Made by a program: the position numbers and the translations under genes. A DNA stretch of 64,000 nucleotides from a phage, in the NCBI GenBank assembly GCA_012411765.1, contig GCA_012411765.1_3031.1. The stretch is one strand, 5' to 3'. This document shows, piece by piece, positions 2,014 to 14,032 of this stretch. The notes beneath the pieces are model-generated. The model was not told the DNA's origin and made no database searches. It saw only the letters and a program-made list of their open reading frames with translations. Numbering within the stretch: the stretch's first letter is position 1; the number at the start of each line of letters is the position of its first letter.

Positions 2014-3638
<1,625 letters not shown>

Positions 3639-3639
<1 letters not shown>

Positions 3640-3893
3640 TGGAAGGTTTAATTGAAGCTATTAAATCAAACGACCTCGTAGCCGCTCGTAAATTATTTGC
3701 TGAAGCCATGGCTGCAAGAACGATTGATTTAATTAAAGAAGAAAAAATTGCTATCGCTCGTAATTTCTTAATTGAAGGTGAAGAACCTGAAGACGAGGAT
3801 GAAGATGAAGATGATGACGAAGATAGCGATGATAAAGACGACAAAAAAGACAAAGACTCTGATGAAGATGACGAAGACGAGGATGATGAATAA
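3639..3893 (+). CDS. 67: Prohead core protein gp67 with extremely acidic D/E-rich C-terminal tail
   Basis: Small protein between gp20 and gp68, start overlaps gp20 stop (TAATG); D/E run. Confidence 0.85.
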
Positions 3894-4318
3894 TGCTTCT
3901 GATCCCTGAAACTCATGAATTAGTTCTCGAGAATGTCGAAGCACTTATTCCTGAAGCACAGGGTCGCTTCGACGAATTGTCTTCTGCTTTAAATAAAGAC
4001 GATATAAATACAATTGTCGAGAATATGCTTGATGATGAAACTGATTTAGCGGTTGCATTAGCTTCTATTAATGAAAATATGCCACTAAATGAATTTATCG
4101 TTAAACATGTTTCCGCCCGTGGTGAAATTACACGTACCAAAGATCGCAAAACGCGTGAACGTAATGCATTTCAAACCACCGGGCTGTCTAAAGCAAAACG
4201 TAGACAAATTGCTCGTAAAGCTACCAAAACGAAGATTGCCAATCCAGCAGGTCAATCTCGTGCTCAGCGTAAGCGTAAAAAAGCTCTTAAACGCCGTAAA
4301 GCATTAGGATTAAGCTAA
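3893..4318 (+). CDS. 68: Prohead core protein gp68 (141 aa)
   Basis: Position between gp67 and gp21; basic C-terminus; overlapping start/stop. Confidence 0.85.
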
Positions 4319-4986: not shown

Positions 4987-5796
4987 ATGCTTAAAGAACA
5001 ACTGATTGCCGAAGCGCAGAAAATTGATGCTTCCGTTGCTCTTGATAGTATTTTCGAATCAGTTAATATTTCTCCGGAAGCAAAAGAAACTTTCGGCACT
5101 GTATTCGAAGCTACCGTCAAGCAGCACGCCGTTAAATTAGCTGAATCTCATATCGCTAAAATTGCTGAAAAAGCAGAAGAAGAAGTAGAAAAAAATAAAG
5201 AAGAAGCCGAAGAAAAAGCTGAGAAGAAAATCGCTGAGCAAGCTTCTAAATTCATTGACCATCTTGCGAAAGAATGGCTCGCTGAAAATAAATTAGCAGT
5301 TGATAAAGGCATCAAAGCCGAACTGTTTGAATCCATGCTTGGTGGATTAAAAGAGCTCTTTGTTGAACACAACGTTGTTGTTCCAGAAGAATCAGTTGAT
5401 GTTGTAGCTGAAATGGAAGAAGAGCTGCAAGAACATAAAGAAGAATCAGCTCGTCTGTTCGAAGAACTCAATAAGCGTGACGCATATATCAATTATGTGC
5501 AGCGTGAAGTGGCATTGAGCGAAAGTACTAAAGATCTGACCGAGTCTCAAAAAGAAAAAGTCTCTGCTCTGGTCGAAGGTATGGATTATTCAGATGCATT
5601 CTCAAGTAAATTGAGTGCAATCGTAGAAATGGTGAAGAAATCTAATAAAGATGAAAGCACTATTACTGAGAGTATAAATACTCCTGATACTGAAGCAGCC
5701 GGACTGAATTTCGTCACTGAAGCTGTAGAAGATAAAGCTGCACAGGGTGCAGAAGATATTGTAAGTGTATATGCGAAAGTCGCATCTCGTTTCTAA
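4987..5796 (+). CDS. 22: Prohead scaffold core protein gp22 (269 aa), coiled-coil, E/K rich
   Basis: 269 aa; charged helical composition; immediately upstream of gp23. Confidence 0.93.
   Translation: MLKEQLIAEAQKIDASVALDSIFESVNISPEAKETFGTVFEATVKQHAVKLAESHIAKIAEKAEEEVEKNKEEAEEKAEKKIAEQASKFIDHLAKEWLAENKLAVDKGIKAELFESMLGGLKELFVEHNVVVPEESVDVVAEMEEELQEHKEESARLFEELNKRDAYINYVQREVALSESTKDLTESQKEKVSALVEGMDYSDAFSSKLSAIVEMVKKSNKDESTITESINTPDTEAAGLNFVTEAVEDKAAQGAEDIVSVYAKVASRF
5683..5690 (+). promoter_or_regulatory. Late promoter TATAAATA inside 3' end of gene 22, upstream of gene 23
   Basis: Exact octamer about 125 nt upstream of gp23 ATG. Confidence 0.45.
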
Positions 5797-8777: not shown

Positions 8778-9782
8778 TTAGCTCACCAACTCAATCCAAG
8801 CTGGACGAAGTACATCTTGCACCATTTTAACTAATTCCTTTTTAATCAAAGAAGGATTATCTGCTTGAGTTAGAGTAATACCTTCACGAGAAGTTTCTTC
8901 CAAAATATCTTGAACAGTTAGCCCCATCACCTTTCCAAAATCCTTTGGACCAATTTCGCCAATTTTAGAAATAACGTTATTTACCCGGTTCAGTGTAACA
9001 TAACAAGCTAAAATTCCAACCAATTTGTTATCAGCTTCTGATAGTTCAACTTTCGCTTTAATAGGCTTATCAGACTTTTTCTTTTCACTAAATTTGGAAT
9101 TCTTGCATTTAATCGCTACACGATTGCGATTAGGCAGCCAAGAAGGATAACAAGGTTTCAATACATATCCTTCAGCGGTAAATACTTCGCCTTTTGCTTC
9201 GGCATTCCAAACGCATTTATTTGCATCAACTAATCCAGCATGGTCTACTGTAAAATTATAATCTTGGACGACAGAATCTAAATCATTTGGCAATTTAATA
9301 AGCTCTTCAAATTTACCGCGACCTAAAAGTGGAGCCATTTTAAATTTAAATGTATTACAGAATGATTCCATCATATAATCGTCGACATAAGTCACATCAC
9401 CACTTTCTGTAGTGACAATAATGTCAAATACATAAAAATCTTTATCGCCATAATCAACATTCTTCTGAATGCCAGGTCCAGCAAATTCGCCAAAAACTTG
9501 ATAAGATACAACCGCTGAAGTTTCCATAATATCTTGTACTGCTTTAATGGAATCAGCGTAATTCTTTAGAATAATTTCATACCCAAAGAAATCTTCAGCA
9601 GGAAGAATCGGTCCAGTACGTTTAGCGCAAGTTACTTTATCACGCTCAATAATCAATGAGAAATTTGTGCCGTGAATCTTTTCACGAGCTACCCATTCGC
9701 CGCTAGTCAATCCCAAGCTGTAAAGTTTTTCAATAAATTTAGAGTTGTAATGATTTTCAAGACTGCTATACTTTTTAAACAT
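8778..9782 (-). CDS. rnlB: RNA ligase 2 (334 aa)
   Basis: 334 aa; nucleotidyltransferase KxHG motif ([10 protein letters not shown]); position after gene 24. Confidence 0.93.
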
Positions 9783-9791
9783 AATTAATCC

Positions 9792-10070
9792 TCAAAATGT
9801 AATTTCTAACCAATCACCATCACGCTGATCACTATTGACTTTAAAGCTGAATCCTTCTTTTCTCAGCCAATCACCAATTTCTTCAGTAATCAATTTATCA
9901 CGAGCAATACAATAATAATTAAAATGTGTTTTACCTTGTTCAGCTGCTTTATTAGCAAGTTCCGAAAAATCTTTAATAAAACACTCTAGCTTAAACTGTT
10001 TACTTTTGAATGCTTTTTCGCGTAATTGATTAGCAAAAGATTCATTTTCATAAAGATCATACTGTTCCAT
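9792..10070 (-). CDS. 24.2: Hypothetical protein (T4 24.2 position)
   Basis: ATG-start ORF, packed between rnlB and 24.3. Confidence 0.6.
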   Translation of the reverse strand: MEQYDLYENESFANQLREKAFKSKQFKLECFIKDFSELANKAAEQGKTHFNYYCIARDKLITEEIGDWLRKEGFSFKVNSDQRDGDWLEITF

Positions 10071-10272
10071 TTCTCACCTTTTTATTGATATGTCTTTTTC
10101 TATAGACGACTTTTTCTCGAGTTTCAAATTTATTTTTAGCAGTCATAGCTCGAGCCCATAATACAGCCACTTCTTTTGCCTGTAAGTTTAATTCACGAGC
10201 AATTTCAATGAATGACTTTCCAGACTCATGAAGAGTAAACACCACAACCTCAGTTCTCATAATCAATCTCAT
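10057..10272 (-). CDS. 24.3: Small predicted helix-turn-helix protein (T4 24.3 position)
   Basis: 71 aa; segment GKSFIEIARELNLQAKEVAVLW resembles sigma-region-4/LuxR-type HTH. Confidence 0.55.
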   Translation of the reverse strand: MRLIMRTEVVVFTLHESGKSFIEIARELNLQAKEVAVLWARAMTAKNKFETREKVVYRKRHINKKVRNGTV

Positions 10273-10361
10273 GTTATCGAGTTGGTGCCATTATATACAT
10301 CATTTTCTGATTGTGTTTTGTGTGCTTTCAAAATGAAGAAAGGGGCCGAAGCCCCTTATGA

Positions 10362-11780
10362 TTATGGATAGGTATAGATGATACCAGTTTCTAAAGCAGT
10401 TTTATGAATGATGTATCCATTACGTGATTCTTGAACATCAACTTCTGGATAGTCTTTCATCATCTTCTGAAGAGTATAACGATGCAGATAGTATTTACTA
10501 TCTGGGTCTTCAGTTTTCCAATCTTTACCTTCTTCGGTCATTTTTTGGATTTCATCCATAACCCACCAACCGCACCAGATGTAAGCTGAAGTACGATGTG
10601 GAAGAGGATGAACATAAGGCAATTCACCTTCTGGTTCTGGAGCAACTTTATCAGTTACCTGAACTTGACCTTCTGCTGTAATAGTTTTGCTATCATAATC
10701 AGCAGCAGTAACAGTTGCAGTAACTTCAATAGTTTGACTTCCAATAGATGAGGTATCAACGGTATATACATTAGTTGACCCTTCTGCAGGAGAAGAATCT
10801 TTCTTCCATGAATATTCAATTTGCGCTTCTTCTGGAGCATCAGTGACATTAGCAGTAAATGTAGCCGAAGCATCTTGTTGAACGTTAATAGAAGGAGGAG
10901 TCAATGTAACCTGTGGATTCATTGTCTTCTTATTAACCGTTAATGATACTTCATTAGAAGTAACTTCCTTTTCATTGTAATTTTCAGCAGTTACTTGAGC
11001 TACGCATTTAATTCTTTTTACTCCACTTGTAGTTGGAGTATAGTTAAATGTAGAGTTAGTTTCTCCACCAACCTGTGAATCATCTACATACCACTGATAC
11101 GTAGCAGATGCTCCAACTGGTTGAGAAGCTAAGGCAGCAGTAAATTGAACTGGGGTTCCAATTACTCCAGCTGAAGGACTATCGGGAGTTACTGCCAAAG
11201 TAGTTGTCTGTGTCTTCTTATTAACAGTCAGCGACACTTCATTAGAAGTAACGCTTAGTGCGTCATAATCTGTTGCGGTTACTTGAGCCACACACTTAAT
11301 TCTTTTTACCCCGCTTTCGGCAGGAGTGTAATTGAACGTGGCGTTAGTTGCTTCGCCCACAGGAGAATCATCTACATACCATTGATAAGTAGCGTTTGCG
11401 CCCGATGGCTGCGAAGCTAAAGCGGCAGTAAATTCAATAGCTGTTCCGATTACTCCAGCGTCAGGGCTATTAGGAGTTACAGCTAAGGTAGTCGTTTGTG
11501 TCTTATTTTGAACTGTGATAGTTGTTGTCGCTTCAGCCGTTTCCGGGCCTCCTTCAGAAAGTGTATTTGTTGCAACTACTTTAATAGTCTTTTGACCGGC
11601 AGGTCCTTTTAGTACATAACTAAAAGTTGCTTCAGCTCCATCTTGTGGAACATCATCTACAGTCCAAGCATAGGTAATAGTTCCGCCTCCAGTTTCACCA
11701 CTGGGTGTAGCAGTAAACTGCTGAGTCTGATCTATAACTCCAGTAGGTGTTTTAGGAGTTATATCAACTGTAAAAGCCAT
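10362..11780 (-). CDS. hoc: Hoc outer capsid decoration protein, 472 aa, with an extra tandemly duplicated Ig-like domain
   Basis: N-terminus MAFTVDITPKTPTGVID, C-terminal capsid-binding region, internal Ig-like repeats. Confidence 0.9.
   Translation of the reverse strand: MAFTVDITPKTPTGVIDQTQQFTATPSGETGGGTITYAWTVDDVPQDGAEATFSYVLKGPAGQKTIKVVATNTLSEGGPETAEATTTITVQNKTQTTTLAVTPNSPDAGVIGTAIEFTAALASQPSGANATYQWYVDDSPVGEATNATFNYTPAESGVKRIKCVAQVTATDYDALSVTSNEVSLTVNKKTQTTTLAVTPDSPSAGVIGTPVQFTAALASQPVGASATYQWYVDDSQVGGETNSTFNYTPTTSGVKRIKCVAQVTAENYNEKEVTSNEVSLTVNKKTMNPQVTLTPPSINVQQDASATFTANVTDAPEEAQIEYSWKKDSSPAEGSTNVYTVDTSSIGSQTIEVTATVTAADYDSKTITAEGQVQVTDKVAPEPEGELPYVHPLPHRTSAYIWCGWWVMDEIQKMTEEGKDWKTEDPDSKYYLHRYTLQKMMKDYPEVDVQESRNGYIIHKTALETGIIYTYP
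10935..11504 (-). repeat. In-frame tandem duplication (2 x ~285 bp, ~95 aa each) inside hoc
   Basis: Two adjacent protein segments starting KTQTTTLAVTP and ending EVSLTVNKK; DNA copies about 75-80% identical by eye. Confidence 0.85.
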
Positions 11781-11789
11781 AAGTTATCC

Positions 11790-12470
11790 TTATTTTAATG
11801 TTACGAAAGAAGAGTTGCGTGTTTCACGAATTAAAACTGATCCGTCACGGTTAATGTAATAAATTAAGCTAAATAAAGTTTGGTGTGCTGACGCATGTTC
11901 AAAACTAGTTGGGTGAGATTTCCAATCAGGAGTTTCAGCAATCCATTGATAAATCCACCAAGGAACAGTGCAGAATCCTGGATTTTTTCCAATCAGCTGA
12001 AGATTCGGACTAAAGTTTTCCGGAAGAGTAAATACAGACGGCTTTTCAGATTCAATAATCTCAGCTACAGCCTGTTCGAATTTTTCTTCAACAAAAGGAG
12101 TATCTTCAATCAAAACATCGGTATTTTCAGGAATTTTATCCTTTTCTACTACTTCAATTTTAATGTCAGATTTAACCGGAGAATCAATCAGAAGTGCTGC
12201 CTCTGGATTGACTTCTTCATCGTCATATTTTAATCCGTCTGCAGCATCAGCAGCATCAATTAAGTCTTTAATAGATAACCCATCAGTCTCTGGCATAGGT
12301 TCACTAGCGAGCTTCTGGAGGGCTTCTTCAATATCATTAACGATATTATCAAAAGATTTATTCTTTTTGACCTTTATACCAAACTGTTCAGCATATTCAG
12401 CTAATTTAGCTTTAGCTTCTTTATTATCATCAAGAGCCTTCAGCTCTGCAATATAATCTTTATCTATCAT
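11790..12470 (-). CDS. inh: Inh, inhibitor of prohead protease gp21 (226 aa)
   Basis: 226 aa, position between hoc and uvsW as in T4. Confidence 0.8.
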   Translation of the reverse strand: MIDKDYIAELKALDDNKEAKAKLAEYAEQFGIKVKKNKSFDNIVNDIEEALQKLASEPMPETDGLSIKDLIDAADAADGLKYDDEEVNPEAALLIDSPVKSDIKIEVVEKDKIPENTDVLIEDTPFVEEKFEQAVAEIIESEKPSVFTLPENFSPNLQLIGKNPGFCTVPWWIYQWIAETPDWKSHPTSFEHASAHQTLFSLIYYINRDGSVLIRETRNSSFVTLK

Positions 12471-12483
12471 AATATTTCCTCAG

Positions 12484-12491
12484 TATAAATA
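12484..12491 (+). promoter_or_regulatory. Late promoter TATAAATA upstream of uvsW
   Basis: Exact octamer about 30 nt upstream of uvsW ATG. Confidence 0.55.
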
Positions 12492-12520
12492 TAGATATAT
12501 TTATTACATGGTATTTAGAC

Positions 12521-14032
12521 ATGACTGACATTAAAGTACATTTTTATGATTTTAGTCACGTGAGAATTGATTGTGAAGAAAGTACATTTCATGAACTCCG
12601 TGATTTCTTTAGCTTTGAAGCTGATGGGTATCGTTTTAATCCGAAGTACAAATATGGTCATTGGGATGGACGAATCCGTCTTTTAGATTATAATCGTCTT
12701 CTTCCATTCGGCTTAGTCGGGCAAATTAAAAAGTTCTGCGATAACTTTGGCTATAAAGCCTGGATTGACCCACAAATTAACGAAAAAGAAGAATTATCAA
12801 GAAAAGATTTTGATGAATGGCTTTCTAAATTAGAAATCTATTCAGGAAATAAAAGAATTGAACCACACTGGTATCAAAAGGATGCAGTGTTCGAAGGATT
12901 AGTTAATCGTCGTAGAATTCTTAATCTTCCAACATCCGCAGGTAAATCTTTAATTCAAGCTTTGCTTGCACGTTATTATTTGGAAAATTATGAAGGTAAA
13001 ATTCTTATCATTGTTCCAACAACTGCTCTGACAACTCAGATGGCTGATGACTTTGTTGACTATCGTTTATTCAGTCATGCAATGATAAAGAAAATCGGTG
13101 GTGGAGCATCAAAAGATGATAAATATAAAAATGATGCGCCAGTCGTTGTTGGTACATGGCAAACTGTAGTAAAACAGCCGAAAGAATGGTTCTCACAGTT
13201 TGGAATGATGATGAATGATGAATGCCATCTTGCTACAGGAAAAAGTATTTCATCTATCATATCAGGTTTAAATAACTGCATGTTCAAATTCGGTTTGTCT
13301 GGTTCATTACGCGATGGCAAAGCCAATATCATGCAGTATGTTGGAATGTTCGGTGAAATATTTAAGCCAGTAACGACCTCTAAATTAATGGAAGATGGAC
13401 AAGTAACTGAGCTAAAAATTAATAGTATTTTTCTTCGCTATCCCGATGAGTTCACTACTAAATTAAAGGGAAAAACTTATCAAGAAGAAATAAAAATTAT
13501 TACTGGGCTTAGTAAAAGAAATAAATGGATCGCTAAATTAGCTATTAAGCTTGCGCAAAAAGATGAAAACGCTTTTGTCATGTTTAAACATGTATCGCAT
13601 GGTAAAGCTATTTTCGATTTAATTAAAAATGAATACGATAAAGTTTATTACGTATCAGGGGAAGTTGATACCGAAACCCGCAATATAATGAAAACCTTAG
13701 CTGAAAATGGTAAAGGAATAATTATAGTAGCTAGTTATGGTGTATTTTCTACTGGTATTTCAGTTAAAAATCTGCATCACGTTGTTTTAGCGCACGGTGT
13801 TAAATCAAAAATCATTGTATTACAAACAATCGGTCGTGTATTACGTAAGCATGGTTCTAAAACAATCGCAACAGTCTGGGACCTCATAGATGATTGTGGC
13901 GTTAAGCCAAAATCTGCTAATACGAAAAAGAAATATGTTCATTTGAACTATCTTTTAAAACACGGCATTGATCGTATTCAGCGCTACGCAGATGAAAAAT
14001 TTAATTACGTAATGAAAACAGTTAATTTATAA
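12521..14032 (+). CDS. uvsW: UvsW RNA-DNA / DNA-DNA helicase (503 aa)
   Basis: SF2 helicase motifs (PTSAGKS Walker A, DECH box), 503 aa. Confidence 0.95.
   Translation: MTDIKVHFYDFSHVRIDCEESTFHELRDFFSFEADGYRFNPKYKYGHWDGRIRLLDYNRLLPFGLVGQIKKFCDNFGYKAWIDPQINEKEELSRKDFDEWLSKLEIYSGNKRIEPHWYQKDAVFEGLVNRRRILNLPTSAGKSLIQALLARYYLENYEGKILIIVPTTALTTQMADDFVDYRLFSHAMIKKIGGGASKDDKYKNDAPVVVGTWQTVVKQPKEWFSQFGMMMNDECHLATGKSISSIISGLNNCMFKFGLSGSLRDGKANIMQYVGMFGEIFKPVTTSKLMEDGQVTELKINSIFLRYPDEFTTKLKGKTYQEEIKIITGLSKRNKWIAKLAIKLAQKDENAFVMFKHVSHGKAIFDLIKNEYDKVYYVSGEVDTETRNIMKTLAENGKGIIIVASYGVFSTGISVKNLHHVVLAHGVKSKIIVLQTIGRVLRKHGSKTIATVWDLIDDCGVKPKSANTKKKYVHLNYLLKHGIDRIQRYADEKFNYVMKTVNL

Follow-up and report, generated by a model that had tools for sequence, protein, structure and literature searches.

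The hoc gene (highly immunogenic outer capsid protein) lies at positions 10362..11780 on the minus strand of the window, by which is meant the whole 64,000-nucleotide stretch of phage DNA that was analysed, and consists of an open reading frame of 472 amino acids plus a stop codon. It is bordered by inh (11790-12470) on one side and by a homologue of gene 24.3 (10057-10272) on the other, as in T4. Among the ORFs of the window, the gene order rnlB, 24.2, 24.3, hoc, inh, uvsW and the orientation match the T4 annotation, apart from the absence of segE. The gap between inh and uvsW is only 50 nt here (12471-12520), and it is at this place that T4 carries the homing-endonuclease gene segE (5058-5675 in the T4 locus, L001); segE is therefore missing at that site in this phage. 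The ORF in the 24.3 position is 71 amino acids long, and T4 24.3 is annotated as a 171-nt gene of 56 amino acids. Over its first 25 kb, the window shares 98.1% identity with Escherichia phage vB_Eco_Solly; among the other matches listed, PhiZZ30 (Tequatrovirus), teqdroes, AndreasVesalius, and several more stand at 97.5-97.7%.

Hoc is a non-essential fibre at the centre of each major-capsid-protein hexamer in T4-like phages. By all testable criteria, which concern the capsid-binding domain, the string of Ig-like domains, and the genomic position, the window protein is a member of the Hoc family. Its C-terminal capsid-binding domain (aa 377-472; 10365..10652, minus strand) is equivalent to T4 Hoc residues 281-376, from which it differs by three substitutions in a global alignment; the boundary of this domain was taken from section 3.6 of PMC10385173. 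An Ig-like string is found with Pfam models (PKD, E=1e-9; PKD_4; Ig_3; Ig_2), AlphaFold2, and Foldseek, and comparison of the window ORFs with the T4 annotation places the gene in its conserved position. Additionally, a phmmer search of the PDB matched the T4 Hoc chain 5vf3_Z at E=3.9e-223, with residues 189-472 against 93-376 as the best stretch. Given the near-identical capsid-binding domain, one copy of Hoc would be expected at the centre of each gp23 hexamer.

The remainder of the gene, also on the minus strand, divides into Ig-like domains. Ig-like domain 1 (aa 1-92; 11505..11780) is collinear with T4 Hoc aa 1-92 and is modelled with strands of pLDDT ~90. It is followed by repeat unit 1 (aa 93-188; 11217..11504), an alpha-type copy of domain 2, and by repeat unit 2 (aa 189-284; 10929..11216), a beta-type copy, where both units were delimited by the repeat search and the types refer to the clades described below. 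Ig-like domain 3 (aa 285-376; 10653..10928) is collinear with T4 Hoc aa 189-280 and is further supported by Pfam Ig_3 and I-set matches at 289-373 and by confident AlphaFold2 beta strands.

A first-pass annotation of this DNA had placed an in-frame tandem duplication of an Ig-like domain at 10935-11504, which agrees with the units found here except for a shift of 6 nt at the lower coordinate. The repeat search found a direct repeat of 251 nt with 75% identity at a spacing of 288, plus a 42-nt repeat with 88% identity at the same spacing. The two units are of equal length, 96 codons each, and a spacing of 288 nt makes them an in-frame tandem duplication of a whole domain. When Hoc was compared with itself at offsets from 60 to 329, the matches peaked at offset 96 (103 matches), against 54 at offset 95 and 45 or fewer at the rest, so that the internal repeat anticipated by the annotation is recovered by self-comparison. 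As it had also described, both units start with KTQTTTLAVTP, finish with EVSLTVNK, and hold the motifs YQWYVDDS and GVKRIKCVAQVTA. The array is without a report in Tandem Repeats Finder at its thresholds, as expected for only two copies of 75% identity, and the repeat call is therefore based on the direct-repeat search and the protein self-alignment.

The two units are identical at 77/96 amino acids (80.2%) and at 215/288 nucleotides (74.7%). The copies had been called near-identical at the protein level, which is thus overstated, and the accompanying estimate of 75-80% identity in DNA is borne out. Third codon positions are 52% identical, the codon differences comprise 36 synonymous and 19 non-synonymous changes, and identical in-register runs reach 17 nt at most. 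In contrast to their mutual identity of 80%, the units are 28-40% identical to domains 1 and 3 of the same protein (39-40% for domain 1).

The length of 472 aa, against 376 aa for T4 Hoc (NP_049793), had likewise been noted in the first pass and is confirmed by the ORF and by the T4 annotation and alignment. In a global alignment, the two proteins are collinear from end to end except for one gap of 96 residues adjoining domain 2. Because the single domain 2 of T4 aligns to both units, the extra segment is a second copy of Ig-like domain 2. Of the two, unit 2 is more like T4 domain 2 (90.3% nucleotide identity), and T4 Hoc is without a counterpart of unit 1.

Domain prediction, which had been proposed as a check on the duplication, gave a concordant picture. 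An AlphaFold2 model built with 43 homologues (mean pLDDT 81.8) has four all-beta (beta-sandwich) domains over residues 1-376, with block pLDDT mostly 85-95 (~90), and a C-terminal domain of low confidence. Both units show the same strand pattern in the model, and each, with the same set of beta strands, is one complete structural domain. Pfam PKD and Ig models are also placed on both domain-2 units. A Foldseek search of the PDB returned four-Ig chains from Sidekick, Dscam, and ICAM-5, as well as RB49 Hoc (3shs, E=6e-10).

The first-pass annotation implied that a duplicated domain would be unusual for Hoc. However, many reference Hoc proteins match that of the window in both length and number of domains. 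A hoc query matched 659 phage records, of which 60 were sampled at even steps down the match ranking. The match spans 1418-1425 nt, corresponding to two units, in 26/60 of these; it spans 1131 nt, corresponding to one unit, in another 26/60, and ~850 nt (two Ig domains) in 2/60, while the remaining records are partial matches. Similarly, a unit 1 query matched 892 places in 617 records, with at least two places per record in 17 of 40 sampled at even steps. Both estimates agree that, among the roughly 617 Tequatrovirus and Mosigvirus records, about 43% carry at least two units. Record spans and places per record were used here since megablast coverage cannot tell one-unit from two-unit genes, as a single unit in the subject is aligned to each of the two in the query. 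The evenly spaced samples of phage records were preferred to IMG/VR, whose 21 loci, mostly distant, offered too small a base for a census. The best 120 protein clusters gave a comparable range of Hoc lengths, with 376 aa in 78, 472 aa in 29, and 568-570 aa in 8.

The two-unit hoc is therefore an ordinary variant, being among the three states in which the gene commonly occurs in Tequatrovirus and Mosigvirus. A protein identical to that of the window is present at NCBI (EFD7934003.1) on a contig of 166,879 bp from an E. coli assembly, and its cluster includes the Hoc proteins of phages FT, WilhelmHis, wV7, and Sf21. RefSeq phages with multiple units include wV7, Sf21, PhiZZ30, teqskov, and SHFML-11, and the record of the Mosigvirus moskry has a machine-annotated repeat_region over the hoc array. 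That Hoc can hold an extra copy of domain 2 is already known in the sense that public sequences are plentiful and the general phenomenon is published. Publications describing alpha and beta domain-2 cassettes or this duplication were not found in literature searches, in which 'hoc' collides with 'post hoc'; what these did return was PMC10385173, with its general remark that domain number varies, and PNJ-9, a variant that has lost a domain. With the architecture in hundreds of deposited genomes, the observation carries little weight as a discovery and has some practical relevance.

The annotation had favoured an older duplication or an acquisition over a recent slip, and the divergence of the copies agrees with this. 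By the Nei-Gojobori method, units 1 and 2 differ with a dS of 1.41, a dN of 0.14, and a dN/dS of 0.10. The dS between copies is ~5 times that of orthologous hoc segments in related phages (0.2-0.3). For instance, the median dS of the orthologous domain 1, domain 3, and C-terminal segments is 0.21-0.23 between the window and phages with a 92-codon domain 1, and 0.21-0.31 over all pairs, compared to a median of 0.95 over all pairs of alpha and beta units. Therefore, the copies separated well before the sampled hoc genes diverged, and both stayed functional; both are kept under purifying selection. In each of 12 multi-unit hoc genes, DNA identity between the copies is 75-82%, and a young duplicate is thus absent among these genes. 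Across nine genomes, the alpha-beta identity is 0.771 within a genome and 0.769 between genomes (permutation P=0.32). The copies are therefore not being homogenised, and concerted evolution of the units is rejected.

Base composition differs between the copies. In the window gene, GC3 is 0.33 for the alpha unit and 0.16-0.18 for domain 1, the beta unit (0.18), and domain 3, and the bias is weaker in the clade means (0.267 for alpha and 0.203 for beta). This is a weak hint that the alpha unit has a separate history; the bias could stem from a different origin or from selection that favours divergence of the copies in DNA.

The relationships among units were examined with a tree of 36 units from 21 hoc genes, namely those of the window, T4, 15 further phage records, and four IMG/VR loci. 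This is a neighbour-joining tree of 288 recombining sites, without bootstrap support, from genes chosen by the authors as opposed to a full census. It has two clades, alpha and beta, which correspond to the first and second positions in the array, respectively. In 11 of the 12 multi-unit genes, the first unit falls in the alpha clade and the remaining units in the beta clade; the exception is LDJ77, both of whose units are in the beta clade. The alpha clade additionally holds the single units of RB18, ATK47, PYPS2T, PNJ-9, and an IMG/VR locus (L005), and the beta clade holds those of T4, RB59, RB68, and two further loci (L003 and L004). The same division emerges when the units are painted with 13 diagnostic sites, which also reveal small exchanges between alpha and beta. 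By this measure, the single units of RB18, ATK47, PYPS2T, and L005 are near-pure alpha and those of RB68 and L003 are near-pure beta. Across the Hoc protein clusters, units are mosaics of a few recurring patches that assort combinatorially among phages.

The single unit of T4 hoc (3188-4318 in the T4 locus) is itself such a mosaic, with a beta body and an alpha-type patch of ~35 nt. Its identity to the beta unit of the window is 97-100% at nt 37-215 and 253-288; at nt 217-250, which encode TDYDALS, the T4 unit instead resembles alpha (92-94% identity). Moskry carries the same alpha patch in its second unit, and the patch recurs among the units of three-unit genes. An origin of the T4 unit by simple deletion from an alpha-beta array like that of the window was considered and is rejected, because one in-register crossover would leave an alpha head and a beta tail, as opposed to the beta body with an alpha patch that is observed.

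Taken together, it is very likely that the window carries a two-unit (alpha and beta) allele of hoc, in which the copies of domain 2 derive from an old in-frame duplication or an old joining. The encoded protein would be ordered as Ig domain 1, domain 2-alpha, domain 2-beta, Ig domain 3, and the capsid-binding C-terminal domain. The whole 96-codon domain would have been duplicated or joined long ago, and the copies would since have formed separate orthologous lineages across phages. Switching between one, two, and three units most likely occurs by homologous recombination in the conserved unit ends, and short patches would also be exchanged between units. With only 75% DNA identity between its copies and identical in-register runs of at most 17 nt, the array in this phage is probably stable with respect to deletion by recombination.

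How the two copies came to be adjacent is less certain. They may have been the domain-2 alleles of different one-unit phages that were joined by out-of-register recombination in a mixed infection, and this is a tentative possibility, somewhat doubtful on the evidence. The existence of near-pure alpha and near-pure beta one-unit phages fits it, as does the GC3 difference, and T4-like phages recombine freely, as the patch mosaics show. However, the same pattern is predicted if one domain was duplicated long ago and either copy was later lost by crossing over within the conserved unit ends, the GC3 difference is based on 96 codons, and alpha-type DNA was found in phage records, using the unit 1 query, only within this phage group, so that no outside donor is visible. 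Judged from their sequences, the near-pure one-unit types would fit repeated loss from a two-unit ancestor and the joining of alleles equally. A less probable proposal is that the domain-2 units form an old balanced cassette polymorphism, with arrays of one to three units and shuffled loop patches, under diversifying selection on binding or evasion. If this were true, hoc would be a locus of capsid-surface variation comparable to the adhesin cassettes of tail fibres, facing mucin glycans and antibodies. The high GC3 of the alpha unit and the absence of young duplicates in the 12 genes could, in turn, reflect selection for divergence that guards the array from recombinational collapse.

Other origins were considered and are rejected. 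The units are exactly tandem, in frame, and both 288 nt long, as a recent replication slip or unequal crossover private to this phage would produce; yet such copies should be near-identical, and those observed are only 74.7% identical in DNA, with a dS of 1.41 and no identical run beyond 17 nt. The same units are moreover found at the same positions in hundreds of genomes at 84-98% identity, which makes a recent event highly improbable. Programmed hypervariation, in which one unit would template the other in the style of a diversity-generating retroelement, is just as improbable. It would account for the clustering of differences in a few patches that lie mostly in loops (the 19 residue differences affect 13/45 non-strand against 6/51 strand positions; Fisher P=0.043) and for their combinatorial assortment among phages. 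However, the 73 nucleotide differences lack an adenine bias (A15 C23 G21 T14 in unit 1; A27 C11 G13 T22 in unit 2) and are mostly synonymous, ordinary recombination accounts for the mosaics, and a reverse transcriptase was not seen among the ORFs around hoc (9500-13000). A reverse transcriptase is not known from this phage group. Expansion of a repeat through an assembly or sequencing error is the most remote of all these explanations: the general risk posed by tandem repeats is all that speaks for it, and against it are an intact ORF, copies too divergent at 75% identity to confuse an assembler, more than 250 independently sequenced phages with the same architecture, and the identical protein on the separate NCBI contig.

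The T4 protein (PDB 5vf3 and 8t1x) is encoded at the same position and is nearly identical to that of the window in domains 1 and 3 and the C-terminal domain; it has a single beta-type domain-2 unit with its short alpha patch, to which the window adds an alpha unit upstream. Hoc proteins of 472-474 aa from vB_EcoM_FT, WilhelmHis, PhiZZ30, teqskov, moskry, wV7, Sf21, and PST share the alpha and beta architecture. Their genes are 93-97% identical to the whole window gene in DNA, they differ from it only by point differences and small patch mosaics within units, and domain 1 is longer by two residues in the 474-aa forms. The Hoc proteins of 568-570 aa (UGKSEcP1, UGKSEcP2, and E. coli contigs) have the same cassette family and flanks, with alpha first, and differ from the window in having one more beta-clade unit and hence five Ig domains. 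Two such three-unit loci were inspected, at 501-2213 in L024 (Escherichia phage UGKSEcP2, OV876900.1) and at 501-2207 in L025. The three units within one gene are 75-78% identical to one another in DNA, the first being alpha and the other two in the beta clade.

Mosigvirus hoc genes show related variation. Those of moskry (L023) and PTK (L031) are 89-95% identical in DNA to the Tequatrovirus hoc of the window and have the same two-unit array, ATK47 has one alpha unit, and PNJ-9 lacks domain 3. The sharing of similar sequences suggests that hoc alleles may pass between Tequatrovirus and Mosigvirus by recombination.

More broadly, Hoc homologues have from 1 to 10 Ig domains (PMC10385173). T4 Hoc is a 180 A fibre with three Ig-like domains on a capsid-binding domain, RB49 Hoc (PDB 3shs) is also an Ig string, and the Hoc of Serratia phage Muldoon has ten Ig domains (PMC10385173). 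A distant T4-like lineage in IMG/VR, at ~48% protein identity, has Hoc proteins of 282, 377, and 471-472 aa, with two Ig domains in L012, three in L009, and four in L006 (1501-2919) and L007 (1501-2916). Here the number of domain-3-type units varies: in the last two loci, it is the domain-3 type that is duplicated and not domain 2, and the alternative in this lineage is a missing middle domain. Therefore, domain gain and loss arose independently in that lineage and is a general property of hoc.

Hoc serves as an anchor in T4 display and vaccine platforms and is a proposed mucus-adherence factor of T4-like phages. For such uses, the 376 aa of T4 should not be taken as the only form of Hoc, as nearly half of the therapeutic and environmental Tequatrovirus and Mosigvirus isolates have domain 2, to which a mucin-binding motif has been mapped, in one or two additional copies. 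The expected mass of the window's Hoc would be 50.7 kDa, compared to 40.4 kDa for T4. The first-pass annotation had also proposed a longer surface fibre. The four confident beta-sandwich domains in the AlphaFold2 model are consistent with this, and the fibre would likely be one Ig domain longer, extending ~4 nm beyond the reported 18 nm of T4; the added length is itself an extrapolation from the domain count.

Such a fibre would likely display two slightly different domain-2 surfaces, each with the motif SLT, which is found at aa 183-185 in unit 1 and aa 279-281 in unit 2. In PNJ-9 Hoc, residues S183, L184, and T185 of domain 2 bind the fucose of MUC2 (PMC11853027). That protein shares the Ig string on a capsid-binding domain with the Hoc of the window, but it has two Ig domains and is without domain 3 (PMC11853027); the mucin-binding data thus come from a Hoc of different architecture, and any effect of a second SLT copy on adhesion would be by analogy.

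Shorter Hoc-related proteins also occur. The 90% cluster that contains the window's Hoc includes proteins of 278 aa (P0123), 281 aa (P0129), and 184 aa (P0133), with sources such as phages vB_EcoM-UFV05 and vB_Eco_EH2, and several CDSs lie under the hoc match in the UFV06 record. Additional losses of domains could explain them, as could genes that were called in pieces or cut short.
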